The notes under the pieces were generated by a model. That model did not search any database. It worked only from the letters and a program-made list of their open reading frames with translations, and was not told where the DNA came from. 64,000 bases of DNA from Octopus vulgaris (Eukaryota), in contig OX597822.1 of NCBI GenBank assembly GCA_951406725.2, positions 16,554,001 through 16,618,000 on the forward strand, given 5' to 3'. The first letter of the stretch is position 1. The number at the start of each line of letters is the position of its first letter. This document shows positions 13,573 through 46,989 of this stretch, piece after piece. The translations under genes were made by a program, and so were the position numbers.

Positions 13573-13610
<38 letters not shown>

Positions 13611-13617
13611 CATGGAT

Positions 13618-14414
13618 CAATCACAGTTGTCGATGAAAAGTAGGTTCCCTTCACAAATACATATCCCTTTTCCATTCGATATCAGTGTCTTTACGATACT
13701 GGAAAGGGATAAGTATTTGTGAAGGGAACCTACTTTTCATCGACAACTGTGATTGTCACATGCCGATGACGGGTCAATACCAGAAACTCGAGTCCGTGTG
13801 TATCATAAGTTGAAGACGGGAAGGATGACTTCTCTTTGCAAATACTGATAGGGCACAGAAAGTGTGTCTAAAGCCAGCTGGAGGAGGTGTCCTCCTGGGG
13901 CTACAAACTATAGTAGCATCCACCCTTAAGGGTTAGCCATATTTAAATGGCAAATATACGTCACAATGTATTCCTTACACGCAAACAAATATCCTTTCAT
14001 CTATATATATATACATGGCGCGAAATTGTGTATATATACATACATATATATATATGAGTGTGTGTGTGCGTATGTATATATGCATGCATGTATGTATACA
14101 CACATATATGTATTTATATATCTGCCCATATATACATATGTGCGTGTGAGTTTGTAATATCAATATTACATTAAAGATGAGAACTAAGACACCTGAATAC
14201 TTGTCGCATTCATTACACTGATATCCTTTTTGCTATGTGAAATTAGGAAAGCTCTCGAGAATGTAGAAAAACTATTACATGCGGTTCTGGAAGAAGTCTC
14301 CGTATAGTTTATAATATATAAAAAAAACATTTATAAGAAAGAATTTTTTTATTTATCCTATATTTCAGTTACATCCTTCATGTAGAACATAAAATATAAT
14401 ATACGAAACATTTG
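13618..14414 (-). repeat. Inverted near-identical duplicate of 2191-2978 (includes hammerhead at 13757-13800)
   Basis: Sequence is the reverse complement of 2191-2978 with only a few differences, including the low-complexity part. Confidence 0.9.
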
Positions 14415-26476: not shown

Positions 26477-28151
26477 ATTGCCTTAATGAAGTAATAATGC
26501 CAGATTGGGTTAGAGGGAGGACAATACTGATTATGAAAGATATGAGCAAGGGTTATAAGCAGTTAGCATCTATGGAACAATCACTTGCTTACCATTAGTG
26601 TGGAAGATGTTAACAGGAATGCTTTCAGAAAGCATTTACGAACACCTTGACAACCAGAATTTACTGCCAGAAGAAAAAAAGAAAAACTTCCAGGAAGAAG
26701 GTGAGAGGAAGGCATGATCTATTATACATAGACAAATCAGTTCTAAATGAAGTAAAAACTAGAAAGAAAAATCTAACAATAGCCTGGATAGATTATAGGA
26801 AAATCCTACGACATGATCCCACATACGTGGATAAGTGAATGCTTGAGTATGTTCAGTAGAGCAGACGACATAAGAGAATTAATTAGCTTTGGCATGACGG
26901 AATGGAAAGTAGACCTCTACTCAAGTGACACACTGTTAGGAAAAATTAATATCAAAAGGGGAATTTTCCAGGGGAAATCGTTGTCCTCTTTAATATTTGT
27001 TGTATGTTTGATACTCCTCGGTTTAGTATGAAGGAAGGCAAAGGCAGGGTATCAGTTCAGAAATAGCAATGGAAAAATTAACCATTTGCTCTACATGGAT
27101 GATCTGAAGCTTTTTAGTAAGAATGAAACAGAGATAAATTCCTCACGACAGAATGTAAGACCCTTCTACAAAGATATAAGCATGGAATTTGGCGTAGATA
27201 AGTATAAAATATTAGTCATGAGGAAGGGACAGATAGTCAACAGTGAAGGCATCCAATTACGAGATGGTCAGACATTAAAATCATTAAAAGGATGAAAGTG
27301 TTATAAGTATCTAGGAGAATTAGAATTTGACAGAGTACTAACAATAGAAATGAAAAGGAGTACACCAGAAGGGGGAGGAAGCTAATGAAATCAAAGCTAA
27401 CTGGTCTGAATCTAGTGAAGGCTGTAAATATTAGGGCAATATTATTACTTAGATACTCAGCAGCTTTTGTAGATTAAAGAAAAACTGAATTAGCAAAGCA
27501 ACACAGAAGAACTAGGAAGGAATTCAATATAAATGGAGACCTCCACCGAAGGGCAGGAGTAGCAAGATTATACATACCAAAGAGGGGAGGCGGAAAAGAG
27601 CTGTTAGAGTCATAGCAAGAAATAGGGAAACCAAAGACAAAAATATGAACTTAAAAACCATAAAAATGAACAGAAATTACTTGACTGGCAGGTGAAAGAA
27701 TTACGTGGTAGATTCCCAAAGATACTTGCAGCAAATAGAAGTAGTGAGACATGGTTATGGTTGAAGAAATGAAAGCCGAAAAGGGAGACAGAAAGTTTGT
27801 TAGTAACAGCATAAGATCAAGCATTAAGGACTACTTGGATGAAAGCCAAGATAGACAAAACCAAGTAGAATCCCAGTGTAGATTATACAAATCAAAAGAG
27901 GAAAGCGTTGCTCATATACAAAGTGAATGTAGCACGCTGGTACAGAACGAATACAAGAAACGACATGACAACATAAGGAGAGTAATCTTTAGCTATGGTT
28001 TGAACATATTAATAAATGGTATGAAACATAAACCTAGGAAAGTACTAGAAAGAAAGAAATACAAGATGCTGTGGAACTTTAATATTCAGACTGACAGAGC
28101 AATAGAAGTTAGAAGGCCTGATTTAGTAGTAGTAGTAGTAGTAGTAGTAGT

Positions 28152-28228
<77 letters not shown>

Positions 28229-28590
28229 ATAAAGAGAATAGAACGTGCCAGACAACTAACTTTACAGTCCCGAATGATGAAAAAAATCAATATGAGAGGT
28301 ATCGGAAAAATAGCAAAGATCCAGGACCTAGCCATTGAATTACAGAGGTTATGAAAAGTACGGATAAAATGTATGCCAGTAGTTATAGGTGCATTGAGAA
28401 CTATCACTACAGATCTGAACAGACGGATAAAGGAAATAGGCATAAAACCCAGCCTAGTACAGCACCAGAAAATAGTGTTATGAGGGACGGCTAGGATATT
28501 GAGTAGGGTTCTTGGCATCTAAGGATACTTGCTGTAGACCCATGTTAGGATTCTTTTCTTTTCCAGCAGTTTAATCCGTTATGTGTAAAC
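26477..28590 (+). mobile_element. 5'-truncated decayed RLE-type non-LTR retrotransposon (R4/Dong-like)
   Basis: Fragmented frames: GRTILIMK, AWIDYRK, GIFQGKSLS, YMDDLKLF, CRL..EESVAHIQSEC, KKRHDN, LWNFNIQTD..RRPDLV; followed by a (TAA)n tail. Confidence 0.9.
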
Positions 28591-29559: not shown

Positions 29560-32500
29560 AGAGTGAACCTTTCATAAGTTTTAAAAAAAAAAAGGAAGAA
29601 AGAAAAGTGAATGAATAAATAAAAAGAAGAAGGGAAAACTATGCCCGGAGATAAAACTATCAACAAAAAAAATACAGACGAATACAGATCTGCTAGCCTT
29701 AGGAAACTGCGCTACGAACAATGTTTACGTGCAGAGAATCCTAAACTGACAGATCCGTCTCTTAATGTAAGAGTCGAAGCTCGTCATGCTTCAATGTCAA
29801 CAAAACAACCTACAATCCGCGATGGTCGGCGAGCGGACTACAAAAGACCACGTACCCAAAAATTGAACCAAAGTCTGATTGAAAAATCAGCTACTGGATC
29901 AAATCTTCCCGTCACACAGGAGCTGGACGTACTCCGCAACTGGAATATTCCAACAGATGGCCATCCATGCTCGTCACCAAACACTGAAAAGAAAAAGAAG
30001 GAAAAATGGACTAGGGAAGATAATAAAGAAGTTCTTGTGGCCTTCTACCATGCCATATATTTCCCCACAGATAAATCGAACACTATACAAACCTACATAA
30101 ACTGGAGACAGAAACACCTTGAAGTAAGACCCTACATAGACAGTAACAAACTTGCCAACGTCAGAAGAAACATTATAAAAAAGAATTACTGACTGAAGTA
30201 GAGATTGATCAAATTAGACAAGCAGTAACGGATAGAATGAACGAAGCTGCAGCTACAGAAGATAATACAGAGGAAATAATTATAGACCAGCTCAGAGCTA
30301 ATAAAAACGAAGTAAGGATTGAAAGAGTTAGTATAAGTGATAGGCAAAGTGAAATACTCCCTGAACCAAATATAAACACTAAGACAGATGAACATCAAAT
30401 AGATGAAGAAAGTCACACAAATATTGACCCGACAGAACTACATGAGCTAAAAAGTCAAATCATGATTGAATGGCTGAAAATTAAAGAAACCAGTATGGAT
30501 GAACGTGATACACTCCCTAAAATCCGCAACTCTAACCAAAACATGAAAATAATTGGTAAAACCCGGCTTGTACTGAAGGATATAATTTCAGCTAATGATG
30601 TTGATATCACAGATCTCAACCACCTATACTATGCATCCGCGAAAATCACAACGATCCTATGTGGTGAAAAGATTAGAAAACGGCAACATTTCCACAAAAA
30701 GCCTTCTTGGCAAGAGCGTTTGCAACAACAAATTAAACAATTTAGATCTGACATTGAATATTTGAAAAACCTTAAGGTTCATAAGACTACCAAACCTACA
30801 AAAACCCAAAAACTAATGAAAAAATATAATATGAAAACTATACTTGATATTGATGCCACCATAGAAACCATCAAGCAAAAGGTATCTGCTAAAGCTGCCC
30901 GCATAGCGAGGTATGAAAAGCGTGTTAGATTCTTCAGGGACAACAACATGTTCAAAAATAATCCCAAAAATTTTTACAGGAAGATAGGAAAAACAACAGT
31001 TACTGTAAAGTCTGTACCATCAAAAGAAGAAGTGCAGGGATTTTGGAATAAAATTTGGGCAGAAGAAAAAACACACAGCGAAAAGGCCCCCTGGATTGAT
31101 AGAATATCTACAGAACTGGACTCCTTAGAAGAGCAAAAGTGGGAGGGTGTCAAGGTAGAAGATATAAGATCTGCTCTCACGAGGTCAAGCAAATGGAAGT
31201 CTCCAGGAAAGGATAAAATCCCTAACTTTTGGTTGAATGCCTTCCCGGAGAGCCATGAACTGCTAACAGAACTTTACAATGATGTTTTGCAACACCCTAG
31301 TAGGATGCCTCCTTGGCTAGTTAATGGGTTAACATTCCTGCTTCCAAAAAGTGAAGAAACAAATGAACCAAAAAACTATAGACCCATAACCTGCTTAACA
31401 ACTATGTATAAAACACTAACATCTGTCCTGACGGAATATACCTATAGTTTTTTGACAGACAGCAGCATATTCCCTAATGAACAGAAATGATGTAAACGTG
31501 GATCCTACGGTTGTAAAGATCAACTGCACATCAATAAGATGATCTTAGAAGATTGTCACAAACGACACAAAAACTTATCAATAGCCTGGATAGACTATAA
31601 AAAGGCTTTTGATAGCCTACCACATAGCTGGATTAAGAAATGCCTAGAAATGTATAAGATAGCACCTACTCTGCGAAACTTTTTGTCTGTAAGTATGAGA
31701 TCATGGAGAACCACACTAACTTTGAACAGTGACAATGAATCTCTAAATGCTGGTGATGTAAAACTTTCATGTGGCATTTTCCAGGGTGACTCACTATCAC
31801 CACTCCTCTTCTGTTTAGCCTTAATACCTCTCTCAAAACTGCTCAATGACGCGCAGTACGGGTATAAAATGTTTGATAAAAATATAAATCATCTCATTTA
31901 CATGGATGATTTAAAGCTCTTTGCAAAAAATGACCAACAACTCAAGGGCTTACTAGCGATTGTCAAACAATTCAGTGATGACATCAGAATGCAATTTGGC
32001 CTCGATAAGTGTGCAAAAGCTTCCTTTATCAAAGGAAAAATGACAGAAACATCTAACGTTAACCTTGACCAGCAGAATGTCATAAAAGAATTAGACCCAG
32101 CAGAGAACTACAAGTATCTAGGGGTAATTGAAGGAGAAGGAATAAGGCATTCAGAGATGAAGGAAAGGATCAGGAGAGAATGTTATCGCAGAGTAAGAGC
32201 AATATTCAAGACAGAGCTGAATGCGAGAAACAGGATCGAAGCGATCAATGCATTAGCCATACCAGTTGTGACTTACAGTTTCAATATCGTTAACTGGTCA
32301 ATTACTGAAATATATAATCTTGACAGAAAAATTCGAAAACTGTTGACAATGCATAGAATGCACCACCCTAAGGCAGATACAGAACGACTTTATCTGCCAA
32401 GAAAAGAGGGAGGCCGTGGACTTTTACAACTGGCAATAACAATGAAGATTGCTACAATTGGCCTAGACACCTACCTGAAAAACTCTGAGGACTGGATGTT

Positions 32501-33636
32501 AAAACTTGTCTCAAAACATGAAAACAAGAAAGCATCATACTCAGTAACAAAACAGGCAAAGGAATATCTAAGTGAATTCCGAATACAACCAATTTCGGAA
32601 TTAGAGATAGACATACAAGAAACAGGCACAGAAAAAGCTAAGCGCATGAAAATCGTGCTAAATCTGCGGCCTTAGATATTCTGAATGATAAATGGCAAGA
32701 AAAACCTCTCTATGGCAAATACCCAAAGAGAGCAAATAATGCAGATGTTGACAAAGCCCTGACCCATCAATGGCTAATGGCCTCTGGCTTAAAATCTGAA
32801 ACAGAGGGGTTTATCATAGCAGCTCAAGATCAATGCCTACCAACAAGAAACTACCAGGCCAACATATTAAAGATCAGAAGCAGTCCAACGTGTCGTGTAT
32901 GCCAACAACAAAATGAAACCATTGACCATGTGGTCTTCAAGTGCAGTCTTCTAGCGCCTACAGAGTATCTCAACATACACGATATAGCTGCACAATATAT
33001 TCACTGGGTAATCTGCAAAAACCTGGACTTGCCCCATGAAAAAAACTGGTGGGAACACAAACCATCCCCAGTGCTTGAAAATGACCACATCTCACTCCTC
33101 TGGAACTTCACCATTCAAACTGACAGAAAGATAGATGCAAATAGGCCAGACATCATATTGAAAGACTTCAGACAAAAATCATGCCTCCTCATTGATATGA
33201 CTGTCCCAATCGATATAAACGTATCTACCTAAAACTGAGCAAATATAAAGATCTTGAAATAGAAATCAGCAAAATGTGGAACCTGAAGACTAAAACAATA
33301 CCTGTTGTCATAGGTGCCCTGGGAATGATAGCAAAGGGGGCTGATTGCTACCTAACTCAGATACCAGGAAATCCAAAAATGGCAGAAATTCAAAAGATAG
33401 TGCTCATGGGAACTGCTCATATCCTACGCAAAATACTTTCTATGTAATCTCAAGGTTTAAAACAAACAAAATTTTTTTTTTTTTAGACATTCATTAGTAC
33501 AACACCAAAAGCTCCCCCCAAAATATATGGCACACTAGGCATAACAACAACATGAACTTCCAACCTGTTGTCTCTTGAGGTCTCTGGGTGAGACTTGGAG
33601 CCAACTTGTACAAATAAAAGGCAAAACTCAAACATA

Positions 33637-33670
<34 letters not shown>
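29560..33670 (+). mobile_element. Near full-length RLE-type LINE, R4/Dong-like
   Basis: One long ORF broken by a few lesions, 3' UTR, (AAT)n tail; 5' boundary approximate. Confidence 0.92.
29641..33447 (+). pseudogene. LINE polyprotein: N-terminal Myb-like domain, RT, CCHC finger, restriction-like endonuclease
   Basis: KWTREDNKEV; KSPGKDKI; NYRPITCL; WIDYKKAFDSLPH; GIFQGDSLSPLLF; YMDDLKLF; YKYLG; CRVCQQQNETIDHVVFKC; RPDIILKD..DMTVP. Frameshifts near 30190, 32655 and 33228; TGA at 31488. Confidence 0.92.
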
Positions 33671-40216: not shown

Positions 40217-40257
<41 letters not shown>

Positions 40258-40396
40258 ACGGGCTTCTTTCAGTTTCCGTCTACCAAATCCACTCACAAGA
40301 CTTTGGTCGGTCCGAGGCTTTAGTAGAAGACACTTGCCCGAGGTGCCACGCAGTGGGACTGAACCCGGAACCATGTGGTTGGTAAGCAAGCTACTT
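40020..40396 (-). mobile_element. SINE family A body, separated from its head (46965-46989) by the insertion array
   Basis: Matches 29007-29486 up to ggtaagcaagctactt, then switches to unrelated sequence. Confidence 0.92.
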
Positions 40397-42607
40397 TATT
40401 TCATAAATTTGTCATATAGACAGTACAAAGAGCTTTGCGGGCTGGACAAACAATTAATGAATGAAAATAAATTATAATGAATAAATGAGAGACGAAACCC
40501 AACACCCGCCGATTGGATTTTTCTCGAAAACATATTTTCTTTTTTTTTTTTAATCAATATAAAGTTTCGAACCTTTTACAAGGAGGAGGCACTAAAACCT
40601 CTTACTTAACATATTTTCTTTTTTCTTTCTTAAAACACAAAATTGAGGATATAAACCACTACAAAATAGTCCAATAAGGTGAGGTTTCAAACTCTGTAAC
40701 GAGGGTCTTTTACCTCCTACTCTTCGATATATCCATCGATATATTCATCATTATCTTCAATGCCGCTTGAGTTCCTGTATCCCACCATTTCCCATGCCTC
40801 ACTCATGTAGGACATGTAAGTCGTTTAAGGGCCACCCGGCCATATGCGACACTCCTCTCCAAATCCTTTAAGCCTTTCCCACAAGGGAAACCTTATGACC
40901 TCCACAGCTATCTGCGGAGGCCATTCGAGATCCCGTGTGAAGGGCATATCTACTGTTTCTTTAAGTTCTTCTACTATTTTTCCACCTCCCCGCCCTTGTA
41001 GAAAAAGATAATTAATTGATAATCTTTAAGGGTGGTGTGGTTTCTTCCACCGTGGGTGGAACAACTTCGGGACATGCAGTCGGCACATCATCTTCCTGCT
41101 GAGATGACCCGTTCTTCTTTCTTTTTTTCTTTTCTTCCTGGCTTTGGGAGAGTGGAGCCCTTCCGCTTTGTCCGGAGACTCTCCCTCGCCTCCCGAAGCC
41201 GTAGGTTCCTTCGGCGGGCAACTATTGTGTCCCGCCTTCTTCCTTTTTAATCCTTTTTGAGTTGAGGAGGCTTCAGCCTCCTCGACCACATCCACCTCTC
41301 CCTTTGACCGGGTAGGGGAGGTGGCATCTGGTGACTGTTCCAGGACCTTACCATGGTCCTGGGGGCAGTTCCTTTTAATGTGGTCTGGCTGCAGGCACGA
41401 GTGACACTTTGGGGGACGTCCCTCAAGTATCACCGGATACCTGCAGCCAGCCATTTTCAAGAAGTCTGGAAAAACCAGTTCTGTTGCGGCCGATGGGGTC
41501 CACCGGGTCAAAATCGCTTTTGACCCTTCCCAATCGACCGCCGGCAATACTATTACATTTAGAGCCTGGGCCCGCCATCTCCCAGTCCCCATCGGATGGT
41601 ATCTTCAATCCAATCCGCTTCGGTGCCCGGGGGGAGCCCACATATCCAGGCTCGTATTAATTTTCTTCCACAATATGACGGGAAAAACAGGATTTCCTTG
41701 CATGTTTGACACCACGGGATATATATATATTACAGAGGAGAAATGTTCTTTAAGTTCATTTTTTATGACTTGTTTTGGGAAGACGGTGATAGAATTAAGA
41801 ACTTTACAATATGTTCTAAGTACCATCGTCTTCTCTTCCATATCTTTTAACCATTGCTTAGGCGGGTTAATTTCCCACTCTAAGACAGAGTTATTCTTTT
41901 TAAGTTCCTTCTCTGCCATGTCAAAAAACAGTTCAAAAGTAGTTCAAAAGACAGTCTGCCAAAAAATTAAACCGAATAAAAATAAAACAATATAAAGGGG
42001 AGGGGAGGAAACTTAAATTAAAGTAATGAAAAGAATGAACCAAAAATTTTTAGAAAGAAAGAAATAATAGAGGAAGGGAAAAGTAAAAGAAAAATCTCAC
42101 AAATAGCAGACAGGGAATCCTTTGTATAATACTCCAAAAAGGTAATCCAAAAAGGTAATCCAAATGGCTTATTCTTATTTTTTTGGCGAGATACGCCCAC
42201 TAGAATTCACAAGAAGAATTTTCAAAAAATTTCTCAATTCACCGTTACGGCCAAAATTTAACACAACTGTAAGACAGTTAAAAAATCATTCTAAATTTCT
42301 TCTAGGTACTCCTTAACAGGAACAACACTATTTTCAAACAAATGGTAGGATACGCCTACCAAACCAATAATTTTCACAATTAAGTAAATAATATTTTCAT
42401 TCAGCCCCCGGCAGACTAAAGCCTAGTGAGGACTTGGTGCTTGTAAAAATAATTTGCAACATACAACAGGTCCCCACTAGACCCCCCAAAATTCTTACCT
42501 TACGGCTGAGTATTCAAAAGTCTTCAAATTAAGACGGCTTTCAAAAACACGTCTTACATCTTCGGTGTCAAGTACAACACTGACGTGCACATGCGCAGAA
42601 GCAACCT
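40397..42607 (-). mobile_element. ORF1-only retroelement copy E1 (decayed)
   Basis: Flanked by 15 bp TSD gtaagcaagctactt (40382-40396, 42608-42622); conserved 3' tail ending AAATA/AAG. Confidence 0.85.
40757..41919 (-). pseudogene. Disrupted ORF1-like zinc-knuckle protein (E1)
   Basis: LEWEINPPKQW..VLRTY; FPDFLKMAGCRYPVILEGRPPKCHSCLQPDHIKRNCP; C-terminal WPPQIAVE; deletions and frameshifts. Confidence 0.85.
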
Positions 42608-42622
42608 GTAAGCAAGCTACTT

Positions 42623-44758
42623 TATTTTATATAATTTGCCACTAGGGCAGCACACAGAGTAGTAGCTACGGGCTGGACAAGGACATTAATGGATGATGGT
42701 GGTGGTGGATGAAGATGGTGATGGGAGAAGTCGAAAGCGCCCGCCGACCATCGCTTCTCTAAAACAATGTTTCAATAAATACATTTAATAAAATGTTCAC
42801 AATGATTCAAATTACATATTTCAGAGGAGGCAACAAACCTCCTCTTCAACATGTTTAAAAATGTTCAAAACGTTCACAATGATTCAAATTACATATTTTA
42901 GAGGAGGCAATAACCCTCCTCTTCAACATGTTTAAAAAATGTTCAACAATTCTCCTCGTCAGGTCCCCGAAGCAAATTGTCTTGCCGCCTGCAGACAACT
43001 CTGCGACGACAAGTCGGGGCCTGCAAAGAGAAAAGTAAAATCTTTCCTCTCAAAGGTCTCTGCGACCCTTGACAAAATATCTTCCGTTACTTTTTCCGCA
43101 GCTACCCGCGGAGGCCATAACGGACTCCTTGAGCCGACCGTGCCCTTGCGTTCTCGGTCACCCAAGCCATTCAAAAATCTTTCCACCTCTTCTCCCTTGT
43201 GGTAAAGGAGGAGAAGCATCTCCTCTTCACAGGAAGGGACCTCACACTGCTCCGTCAGTGGCACACTTCCTACTGGCGGAGCCTTGTCCGCGGGTGGCAC
43301 ACATCCCACCCGCGGCTCCGTCGGCGACACAGAAACGTCAGTCGTCCGACCTCTCCTTTTTCTCCTCCTTCTTTTGGGGGAGACTGCTGACCCAGGGGAC
43401 TCCGTCACCAGACACGGGGGATTGCTATCCCCCTCCGCCACCTGAGCGTTCTTTGGCGGGCAACCATTGTTGCTCGCTTGTCTCTTTCTTTTCGTGGAGG
43501 CAACCTCTTCCACGACTTCCACCGTCTCCCCCTCCAATGAGGGGGCGGCGGGCGCCTTTTCCCCTTTCTGCTCCGGGGCACCACCACAACCCCCGGGACA
43601 ATTCTTCCTGATATGTCCGGGCTTCAGGCACAGGTGACACTTGGGTGGGGGGCGACCCTCGAGTATCACCGGGTACCTGTGCCCAGCCATTCTCAGGAAG
43701 TCCGGGAATTTCATTTCTCCCACGGCCACCGGTGCCCACAGGGTCAAAGTTGCCTTTGACCCCTCCCAGGCGACCGCGGGAGCCATTTTCACACTCAGTA
43801 GTCTGGGTCCGCTATCCCCCAGGTCTCGCCGGATGATCTTCTCGATCCATTCCGCCTCCGTTCCCGGGGGCAGCCCACACACCCAGGCTCTTTTTACCTT
43901 TCTGCCACAATACGAGGGGAGGAACAAAATTTCCTCTCCCTCCAGTGGCTCGCTAGCAAATCTGCTAGCTTCCTCGGGGGTATCAAATAGCAACCACACC
44001 GTTGCAAATTTAGTCCCCCGAGAAATAAACTTTATAGTTGGCAGGTGGTCCCCCAACTCTCTCTCTATAGTAATCCTGTCGAAGAGGGCGATGGCTCCAC
44101 GCGACCTAGAATAGGTTCGTAGGACCACCGTCCTCCTCTCAAGACCTTCAACCCACTGCTTGGGCGGGACAACCTCCCACTCCAAAGCAGTGGTTTCTTT
44201 CGTTGCCATGACTTTAAATGAAAAGAGAAAAAGAGTTCAATCAAAAGTTCAAAGTTCTAAATAAAAGTCCAATAAAAAACACAATGAAAGAACAGAAAGA
44301 CAGAGCAGAGAAAAGAACGAAGGAAGACAGTTCAGTCAATGGCAACACAGTTCTGCAACTCTGGTAATCCTAACGAAACAGGGTACTCCAGTCGCAGCAC
44401 AATTGGTCCTTTCAGCCTTGGTACTCCGTGGTAAATCCAGTGGAAAACACAAGCAAACAAATTAATTTTTGCGGAGGGGCTACGCCTCCTCAAAAAGCAC
44501 AATTCTCACTAAAGAGTGAGACCTTAGACACGACAACAGGCAGAGAAATATATCTGAAGCAAAGTGAAGTCTATTAACCGCAAAAAAATATTAATGCTAG
44601 ATAACGTTAACTGCTAAATAACATTAAGCAAGCAATAAACTTCACTATGCCTCTAAAAATACAGAACGTCTTACCTGTCGCCGAGTCAAAAGTTCAACAT
44701 TTCACGTTCAAACACGTGACATTTGCCGGAGCAAAAAACAACACGTCTGTCTGGTAAG
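42623..44758 (-). mobile_element. ORF1-only retroelement copy E2 (intact ORF)
   Basis: Lies between target repeats aagctactt; ~550 nt 5' UTR, 1251 nt ORF, ~335 nt 3' UTR. Confidence 0.88.
42959..44209 (-). CDS. 416 aa Tx1/L1-type ORF1-like nucleic-acid-binding protein (RRM-like regions, CX2CX4HX4C knuckle, basic linker, unknown C-terminal domain)
   Basis: Open 416 aa ORF; CHLCLKPGHIRKNC; RAWVCGLPPG RNP2-like; homologous to E1 and E3. Confidence 0.85.
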   Translation of the reverse strand: MATKETTALEWEVVPPKQWVEGLERRTVVLRTYSRSRGAIALFDRITIERELGDHLPTIKFISRGTKFATVWLLFDTPEEASRFASEPLEGEEILFLPSYCGRKVKRAWVCGLPPGTEAEWIEKIIRRDLGDSGPRLLSVKMAPAVAWEGSKATLTLWAPVAVGEMKFPDFLRMAGHRYPVILEGRPPPKCHLCLKPGHIRKNCPGGCGGAPEQKGEKAPAAPSLEGETVEVVEEVASTKRKRQASNNGCPPKNAQVAEGDSNPPCLVTESPGSAVSPKRRRRKRRGRTTDVSVSPTEPRVGCVPPADKAPPVGSVPLTEQCEVPSCEEEMLLLLYHKGEEVERFLNGLGDRERKGTVGSRSPLWPPRVAAEKVTEDILSRVAETFERKDFTFLFAGPDLSSQSCLQAARQFASGT

Positions 44759-44767
44759 AAGCTACTT

Positions 44768-46964
44768 TATTTCAAAACATTTGCCATAAAGGCAGTACAC
44801 AGATTAAGTTAGCTTTGCGGGCTGGACGAGGACATTAATGAGGTGAATGATAATGAAAGAAAGATGATAAGGATGGGAGAAGACAGAAAGCGCCCGCCGA
44901 CTTTTGCTTCTCTAAAACATTGTTCTTTTTAAAAAAGATTAACACAAAACGAGATATTAAACCTCTTACAATTTTTCCAATTTTGGGCTTAGCAGTCCAT
45001 TATTAATACAAAACGAGGTATTAATCCTCTTACAATTTTTCAATTTTTGGACTTAAGTCCATTACTAATAATACATATCGTCCTCGAAATAGCTTGTGCC
45101 CGCGCCCTCCACCATGCCTCCCTCAGAACGTAGTCAAGTTCCGAGTTCGCGTCGCCCGGGACCAAGTTATAGTCTTCATTGAGCTCCTTTAGCCCTAGCG
45201 TCACGTCGAACGCCACGGCCTCCACAGCTACCTGCGGAGGCCATTCGGGGTCCTGTGTGAAGGCTAAAGGTGCTCCCTTGTAGTGCTCTTCCATCACTTT
45301 TTCAATTTCTCCTCCTCTATAGAAGAGGACCAATACATTCAGTTCTTTCGTTGGCGGCACAGTTTCCGCCAACGGTATTCCTTCTCTTGTCGGTGGCACA
45401 ACCCCAACCGACGTAGTTCCGCGACATTCCGGTGCCACACTGACAGCCGGCAACGTCCCGTTTTTCTTCCTCTTTTTTTTTTTTTTCCCTTTTCAACTGA
45501 GGGAGGGTGCGTCTCCTCCGTGGCTGGAAGATTCGCCCTCCTCTCCTCATCCCTATTATCCTTTGGTGAGCACCCATTGTTGCTCACCTTCCTCTTTCGG
45601 CCTCTGTTTGAGGAGTCCTCTGCTTTCTCGGCCGTTATCGTTCCCTCTTCTAGAGGGGTTTTACTTAACTGTTCCGGGATCCTATTTTGTTCCCGAGGAC
45701 AGTTCTTCTTTATGTGGCCGGACTCCAAGCACCGATGACACTTAGGGGGGCGACCCTCAAGCATCACCGGGTACCTGCACCCGGCCATTTTCAAAACATC
45801 TGGAAAAACCAGATTGGCTGATTGGGTCCACAGGGTCAAAACTGCTTTCGAGCCAACCCAAGCAGCCGCAGGAAGAACTTTTACATTGAGGAGCTTAGTT
45901 TCGCTGTCACCCAGACCCCGGCGGATAGTCTCCTCTATCCACTCGGGTTCTATGTCGGGTGGCAGTCCGCAGATCCAGGCTTTCATCAATTTCTTTTTTT
46001 TGTAAGTGGGCAGGAATAAGATTTCCTTACCCTCCAAGGGTTCGCTAGCAAATTTGCAAGCCTCTTCAGGGGTGTCAAACAGCAACCACACCGTTCCATA
46101 TTTGACACCCCTGGAAATGAATTTAATTGTTGGCAAATACTCCTCCAACTCCTCCTCAATTGCCGTCTTTTCGAATAGGGCGATGGTGTCAAGTGCCTTG
46201 GAGTAGGTTCTCAACACCACCGTCCTATCTTCACGGTCCTTCAACCACTTTTTGGGTGGTATGATTTCCCACTCCAAAACTTTGTTATTTTTCATTGCCA
46301 TGTTTTTTAAAAAAATATATTCAAATTAGACTCAAAAGCAGGAAGAAAAAAGTTCAAAAGTCTAAATAAATTTGATAGATTTTTGAAAAAACAAAAAGGA
46401 GAAAGCACAACAGAAGGGAAGAAATTAACGGAAAGTCGCAATAAAGAAAAAACAAAGGGGGGGGGGGGGTTAAATGAAGTTCAAAAGAAAGTTAATAAAC
46501 AGAAAAAACACAGCAAAAATATTCTGGCCTTGCGGTACTCCCGGCCTGGGTTGAACCTGGAACACCGCAACTGCAACACAACCTCCACAAAAATGGGTCC
46601 GAAAGGTAATCCAATAGTGGCTTACTTTTATAATTTTCTTGCGAAGTAATAAAACACAAGCAAACAAATTAATTTTTTGCGGAGGGGCTACGCCTCCTCA
46701 AAAAGCACAATTCTCACTAAAGAGTGAGACTTTAGACACGACAACAGGCAGAGAAATATATCTGAAGTAAAGTGAAGTCTATTACCCACAAAAAAATTAA
46801 TGCTAGATAACGTTAACTGCTAAATAACATTAAGCAAGCAATAAACTTCACTATGCTTCTAAAAATACAGAACGTCTTACCTGTCGCCGAGTCAAAAGTT
46901 CAACATTTCACGTTCAAACACGTGACATTTGAAGGAGCAAAAAACAACACGTCTGTCTGGTAAG
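44768..46964 (-). mobile_element. ORF1-only retroelement copy E3
   Basis: Flanked by aagctactt (44759-44767, 46965-46973); conserved 3' tail. Confidence 0.88.
45040..46301 (-). CDS. ~420 aa ORF1-like protein (E3) with one frameshift in a poly-A run near 45480
   Basis: The 45339-46301 ORF (CHRCLESGHIKKNC) continues by homology in the 45040-45453 frame (LFYRGGEIE...WPPQVAVE); 1262 nt, so one base short of a single frame. Confidence 0.75.
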
Positions 46965-46989
46965 AAGCTACTTACCACACAGCCACTCC
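46965..46989 (-). mobile_element. Detached 5' head (A box) of the split SINE
   Basis: aagctacttaccacacagccactcc, identical to 29478-29502. Confidence 0.85.

Follow-up and report, generated by a model that had tools for sequence, protein, structure and literature searches.

Shared terminal hairpin, target-complementary word and landing site of a complete LINE and ORF1-only retroelements stacked in a tRNA-derived SINE of Octopus vulgaris

The 64,000 nucleotides analysed here, referred to as the window, come from Octopus vulgaris (GenBank assembly GCA_951406725.2, contig OX597822.1, positions 16,554,001 to 16,618,000 of the forward strand) and contain on the minus strand, at 40397-46959, three units of about 2.2 kb in the order E3-E2-E1. 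Copies of AAGTAGCTT(G)CTTAC lie between the units and on either side of them, the whole being inside the head of a short interspersed nuclear element (SINE). E1, E2 and E3 are retroelements that encode only a first open reading frame (ORF1), stacked at one base of this tRNA-derived SINE head. These passengers have a terminal hairpin, a short word and the exact landing site in common with a complete long interspersed nuclear element (LINE) and, on balance, they are likely to borrow its reverse transcriptase (RT) by way of the hairpin. An earlier note on this DNA had taken the conserved tail of about 140 nt, as a whole, for the RNA signal recognized by the RT of a partner element. That reading is supported in part: the RT-encoding partner also carries the terminal ~40 nt and the AAGCTAC word, but it lacks the GC blocks. 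The tail is not one signal; it is made of three parts, namely the terminal ~40 nt with the hairpin, the target-complementary word and the GC blocks. The word, together with a hairpin larger than the terminal one and upstream of it, had been overlooked.

The terminal hairpin

The blocks GCGGGCTGGA(C) and CCCGCCGA are found in all three units, as described earlier. The tails of E2 and E3 align at 77% over 159 nt and those of E1 and E3 at 71% over 168 nt, with no E1-E2 match at E <= 1e-3. The hairpins lie 13-14 nt from the unit ends, where the earlier note had placed them:

40410..40422, minus strand: E1 terminal 4-bp hairpin, UGUC/GACA
42637..42649, minus strand: E2 terminal 4-bp hairpin, UGCC/GGCA
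44782..44794, minus strand: E3 terminal 4-bp hairpin, UGCC/GGCA

A chance origin of the tail is excluded, because the two-block pattern has 977 exact copies genome-wide against none for the reversed control, and tail-target junctions number 1002 against 17 in the control. Within the window the reported compensatory change amounts to a single event; the genome-wide data contain several. Genome-wide searches were made with patterns that required both bases of a given pair to depart from the common state. Of 40 tails changed at the outer pair, 34 could still pair there (22 C-G, 11 G-C, 1 A-T), five more paired in a shifted register and one was unpaired. At the second pair 16 of 26 were Watson-Crick, and at the third T-A was found in 96 of the first 100 of 142 tails, which represent few families. 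Among 14 hand-picked stem/loop types, both bases vary at three of the four pairs, the closing C-G being invariant, and on a 90-row tree built with the stems masked the pairs change 7, 2, 3 and 0 times among Watson-Crick states. The covariation proposed from three units is therefore present in the larger sample.

Pairing of TTGTC with the 3' strand of the hairpin, predicted in E1, was rejected, as the GGCC families do not follow it (by eye). The 3' half of the hairpin and the bases that follow are tandemly duplicated in three copies (L056, L076, L077), as if reverse transcription had restarted. An Rfam scan gave 21 matches at E <= 10, none on a tail and none reaching the gathering score, so that the tails have no ribozyme, selenocysteine insertion sequence (SECIS) or signal recognition particle (SRP) RNA match; supposed similarities to pistol, twister and the Alu domain were dropped.

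A complete LINE on the same target

A search with the E2 tail gave 1121 first-look candidates, of which the 40 that were scored are all 97-100% identical, many in 2-kb arrays. RT open reading frames occur in seven of 20 array stretches, and five of these show a 5.4-kb element joined to the same target, ending in TGCC-TAAAT-GGCA..GAAATA, with GAAATA meeting AAGTAGC at the junction. The RT-encoding partner foreseen earlier, with the same terminal hairpin and the same target, was thus found. Its ORF2 has APE, RT and C-terminal zinc (zf-RVT) domains, and its ORF1 a CCHC motif. Compared with solved structures, the ORF2 product is closest to L1 ORF2p (1e-66), with R2 at 1e-20 to 1e-18. Judged by its architecture, the LINE appears to be Tx1-like. 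Like Tx1-type elements, it inserts sequence-specifically with target-site duplication (1002 junctions), the duplications comprising 7-17 exact bases in 25 elements.

Compared with this LINE for signs of an origin by internal deletion, the passengers show no 5' untranslated region (UTR) match of note, and the ORF1 products are only about 26-30% identical. Likeness to the tail of LINE copy L037 is confined to the last 27-37 nt (27 nt at 85% for E2, 37 nt at 78% for E3); the E1 tail has no match to it at E <= 1, and the hairpin is common to them as a structure only.

A sister LINE (L251-L280), about 60% identical at the ORF2 C-terminus, inserts into TATC repeats and ends in AGCC-N6-GGCT followed by AATAAA. 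It was this sister that was returned by a search with a distant ORF2 piece for a block-bearing RT element, in which 30 loci were among the 150 scored matches listed. The 3' UTR of the partner LINE has a conserved block of its own just after ORF2, AAGG..TCTACC..GG..CCTT (L042:2814-3150, minus strand, and other aligned rows), which is probably a hairpin. In several arrays (L031-L033, L037-L038, L040-L041, L045) the young E2 family sits 5' of E3 or of the LINE, which suggests insertion of new copies at the 5' target copy, where upstream SINE sequence is retained.

Two other LINE copies in the window, at 29623-33640 and 26500-28590 (both plus strand), end in (TAA)n and may be R4/Dong-like. The former has RT and zf-RVT matches and a PD..D-like motif; it was rejected as the partner since the tail motifs are absent there.

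A word complementary to the target

Between the terminal hairpin and a conserved box (described below) lies the word (A)AGCTAC(TT), the reverse complement of AAGTAGCTT:

40428..40435, minus strand: E1 word, 8 of 9 bases, one missing
42661..42667, minus strand: E2 word, AGCTACT, 7 nt
44806..44815, minus strand: E3 word, 9 bases with one extra

AGCTAC is present in 23 of 26 RT-bearing tails, and the word of the LINE reaches a perfect 9-nt complement. With the target base left free, and with the first 100 copies listed in each case, tails carrying AGCTAC (694 in all) sit on AAGTAGCTT in 96, and tails carrying AGCTTC (222) sit on AAGAAGCTT in 94; one AGCTTC exception is an opposite-strand reading of a copy already in the AGCTAC set. 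The switch in word and target falls at the complementary base. Among 30 empty SINE heads, 24 are of the T variant and six of the A variant. A further subset of 53 tails was collected independently of the target; 16 of these could not be scored, and word and target agree in 34 of the other 37 (tails fetched earlier were not recounted). After near-identical copies had been thinned, 90 of the 106 tails were placed on a tree built with the word base masked, which shows 8 changes of the word and 10 of the target.

The GC blocks of the passengers

The TCGGCGGGYG block forms the loop of a hairpin of 12-14 bp, and this loop is complementary (GCGGGY to GCCCGY) to the second block, the downstream box that lies next to the word:

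40489..40525, minus strand: E1 upstream hairpin, loop 40503-40512
42725..42759, minus strand: E2 upstream hairpin, loop 42738-42747; two stem pairs broken here, intact in most of its cluster
44877..44912, minus strand: E3 upstream hairpin, loop 44891-44900
40437..40446, minus strand: E1 box TCCAGCCCGC, predicted pseudoknot partner of the loop
42668..42677, minus strand: E2 box TCCAGCCCGT
44817..44826, minus strand: E3 box TCCAGCCCGC

Across 39 clusters (37 distinct rows) the six loop-adjacent pairs give a covariation of 0.772 against 0.323 in shuffled alignments (0 of 500), and 82% are paired against 40-62% when the pairing is slid. Because shuffles ignore relatedness, the tree counts are the safer measure, and there the inner three pairs change 2, 6 and 4 times. 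G-U pairs point to the sense RNA. The linker between loop and box measures 56-64 nt in 90% of 148 tails. The upstream hairpin and the predicted pseudoknot thus appear to be a real RNA structure of the passenger lineage.

None of the 148 distinct block-bearing tails has ORF2 upstream (106 have ORF1, 42 no match), and none of the 26 ORF2-bearing tails among 196 junction tails carries the GC blocks; therefore the 140 nt as a whole are not the RT signal. A weak ORF2 match upstream of L161 vanished when the search stopped at the preceding target copy, and a clustering of 5' truncations at this hairpin (three to four of 41 candidate 5' junctions, some with microhomology) was not convincing. Upstream of its terminal hairpin, the TATC sister LINE also carries a hairpin loop, CTTTTCTTT, that is complementary to AAAGAAAAG.

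The array and its host SINE

The units, their target copies and the host pieces are as follows:

40257..40381, minus strand: host SINE, 3' continuation with B-box-like GGTTCAGTCCC; lower end approximate
40382..40396, minus strand: target-site copy AAGTAGCTTGCTTAC, 3' of E1
40397..42607, minus strand: E1, ORF1-only retroelement; ORF1 stop-interrupted (41605-41919 and 41026-41604)
42608..42622, minus strand: target-site duplication, E2/E1 boundary
42623..44753, minus strand: E2, ORF1-only retroelement; ORF1 42959-44209, 416 aa, two predicted RRM-like domains and a CCHC knuckle
44754..44767, minus strand: target-site duplication, E3/E2 boundary; variant one base shorter
44768..46959, minus strand: E3, ORF1-only retroelement; ORF1 45339-46301, 320 aa
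46960..46973, minus strand: target-site duplication, 5' of E3; same one-base-shorter variant as the E3/E2 copy
46974..46989, minus strand: host SINE head, 5' piece, A-box-like

The A-box and B-box names are those that we presume to apply to the two host pieces, and the joined, empty form of the host SINE is visible in public contigs. Among public sequencing runs, no RNA run was listed as containing these sequences, and four runs are represented by contigs alone. Each unit has a single open reading frame with a weak CCHC match and lacks an RT; for the E3 type an open frame of 420 aa is present in L047. The N-terminal 195 residues of ORF1, modelled with a predicted local distance difference test (pLDDT) score of 82, resemble tandem RRM-like domains, with weak Foldseek scores, and the sole homologue returned is an Octopus sinensis protein (66%). 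As in HAL1-like elements, the passenger ORF1 is homologous to that of a LINE and ORF2 is absent; HAL1 proper, which derives from mammalian L1, was rejected in view of that sole homologue and the absence of poly(A).

The first ~309 nt are common to E2 and E3 at 96.8% (44445-44753 and 46652-46959), as is the same shortened target copy; despite these 5' ends the two ORF1s are only ~65% identical, and 5'-end shuffling among families is seen in other arrays too. Short repeated GAGG..CCTC motifs, possibly small hairpins, occur in the 3' UTRs upstream of the conserved tail (40540-40620, 42800-42930, 44930-45050). Elsewhere in the window, inverted repeats of ~700 bp (90-98%) at 2248-2986 and 13610-14349 surround an AT-rich microsatellite array and may be a DNA transposon.

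A proposed mechanism and its alternatives

The earlier observations that the units have no poly(A) and that AATAAA is completed by the target, and not by the element alone, both hold: of the 133 junction-bearing tails, 126 have a run of three A at the junction and seven a run of four (15 of 148 tails, having no junction match, fall outside this count). Because AATAAA is completed only in the target, transcription would run past the element end into the re-created target, and this, with the absence of poly(A), makes priming on read-through likely. ORF2p may bind the last ~40 nt, and the nicked bottom strand would prime on the read-through sequence, which would explain a fixed junction without poly(A). 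There is precedent in R2Tg, which requires 3' homology and primes on read-through target (PMC12222951), and in the downstream-target requirement of R1Bm, as cited in PMC7265360. The internal word would pair with target sequence; the simplest form of this is a fold-back onto the read-through while the RNA is free, a pairing predicted at 0.3-1.0 in five of six folded tails and at 0.08 in one; during insertion it may swap to the displaced top DNA strand. The upstream hairpin and predicted pseudoknot are likely a platform for assembly or stability of the ribonucleoprotein, not the minimal signal of the RT, and this role is the least supported step of the mechanism.

Several observations weigh against the shared-hairpin reading or its parts. 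None of 41 RT-bearing copies is on the A target. A second ORF1-only family (L035:1587-3033, minus strand, and L283) uses the same site without word or blocks; its ORF1 is 40% identical to that of the LINE, its tail resembles the LINE's, and its origin is likely separate. The 4-bp hairpin by itself is marginal (E1 pair probability 0.01 without read-through), and the folding energy of the whole tail is unremarkable (z -0.75 to +0.41 for E1-E3); the weakness of the stem would fit a protein-bound hairpin without proving one. The loop-box helix was scored on tails chosen by these very motifs and shows wobble changes only (G-U in 5 and U-G in 7 of 39 clusters), and two copies, L153 and L161, share a mismatch in it; for these reasons the pseudoknot is held to be likely and no more. 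An alternative that would restore the whole 140 nt as the recognition signal has it inherited from an unsampled or extinct block-bearing LINE. The GC blocks are kept across 39 clusters, the sister LINE has an analogous loop and complementary box in its 3' UTR (by eye), and the old A-target families yielded no RT partner. The mutual exclusion of blocks and ORF2 in present-day tails speaks against it, however, as does the young E2 family (copies 97-100% identical), which shares arrays with the block-less LINE, and we consider such an ancestor decidedly unlikely.

The word, too, can be read in other ways. It may never pair with the target, the endonuclease alone picking the site and the match reflecting shared age and the exchange of tails between families. 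A tree-aware test found five independent word-target pairs on strong branches (sign test, median p 0.25), which is not significant; its sample deliberately included discordant copies, and recombination may exchange tails. One AGCTACTTT subfamily with an A word sits on the A target (4 of 100 listed), families without the word use the site, and the TATC sister carries a similar word, AAGCTCTAC, mismatched to its own target. Specificity set by the endonuclease is also the stated rule for Tx1 elements (PMC4494074). Yet the changed base is exactly the complementary one, word and target agree in 190 of 200 listed copies, both word states occur in several lineages (8 changes), and the LINE itself approaches or reaches full complementarity, so that we find an idle word rather doubtful. 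About as tentative is the view of the word as a guide, one that would pair with the target DNA on its top strand and help in site selection, with or without read-through RNA. It draws on the same word-target covariation as the fold-back; in LINE tails the complement extends, with a bulge, toward bases upstream of the cut that are absent from the read-through (AAGCTACTTCACC, by eye), and two off-target copies of T-word families have duplications that begin AAGAA (L214) and GAGAAGC (L205). The word is only 6-9 nt long, however, and is absent or imperfect in some families; fold-back on read-through accounts for the data equally well, and RNA-RNA and RNA-DNA pairing look alike at the level of sequence. 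A bolder proposal, which we advance with little confidence, is that an APE-type LINE and its passengers carry an RNA word that pairs with the displaced target strand, an RNA stem swapping partners with the DNA duplex at the nick.

Comparison with known systems

The comparisons below refer to the accessible portions of the sources cited. Stringent LINE/SINE pairs (eel UnaL2, SART1, the maize L1 lineage; PMC3747384) likewise have a short 3' tail common to autonomous and non-autonomous elements, with a compensated hairpin, whereas the octopus passengers encode ORF1 and are not SINEs, have no terminal repeat or poly(A), and carry a target-complementary word upstream of the hairpin. HAL1, HeT-A and Ag-Sponge (PMC5786205, PMC5753468) are alike in having ORF1 only and a LINE 3' end and in needing RT in trans. 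They are listed from the L1, Jockey and CR1 clades, whereas the passengers here have an ORF1 only ~30% identical to that of the partner, insert site-specifically and have a 3' UTR with structure of its own. Closest in habit are the Tx1 systems of PMC4494074 (Tx1 in Tx1D, Tx1-Mar with SINEU, Tx1-9_AMi), in which an APE-type LINE inserts at a set position within a different mobile element and has passengers on a common target and tandem insertions; the target here is instead a tRNA-derived SINE head, and no target-tracking RNA word is described there. R2Tg (PMC12222951) and R1Bm (as cited in PMC7265360) are similar in their structured 3' end and read-through target priming, but R2 has a restriction-like endonuclease and a pseudoknot that belongs to the autonomous element, whereas the blocks here are confined to passengers. 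PMC13282606 lists 13 recently active L1-Tx1 families and, in its accessible portion, never uses the word 'target'. Literature searches found no description of this system, and Repbase entries and the supplements of PMC13282606, which lay outside these searches, may hold these families.

Significance

A terminal stem-loop shared between a LINE and its passengers is textbook, and the specificity of APE-type LINEs is normally assigned to the endonuclease. The many natural families of this system are a ready-made mutational map of the RNA end of a site-specific LINE. With an upstream hairpin confined to passengers, one may ask how parasites that have only ORF1 compete for an RT that prefers its own RNA in cis. 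If the word pairs at insertion, RNA would contribute to target choice in an APE-type LINE, a contribution that would be relevant to retrotransposon-based gene insertion and is directly testable. If the pairing is with the displaced strand, one RNA base change would shift preference between two SINE variants, and targeting in this LINE would be partly RNA-guided.

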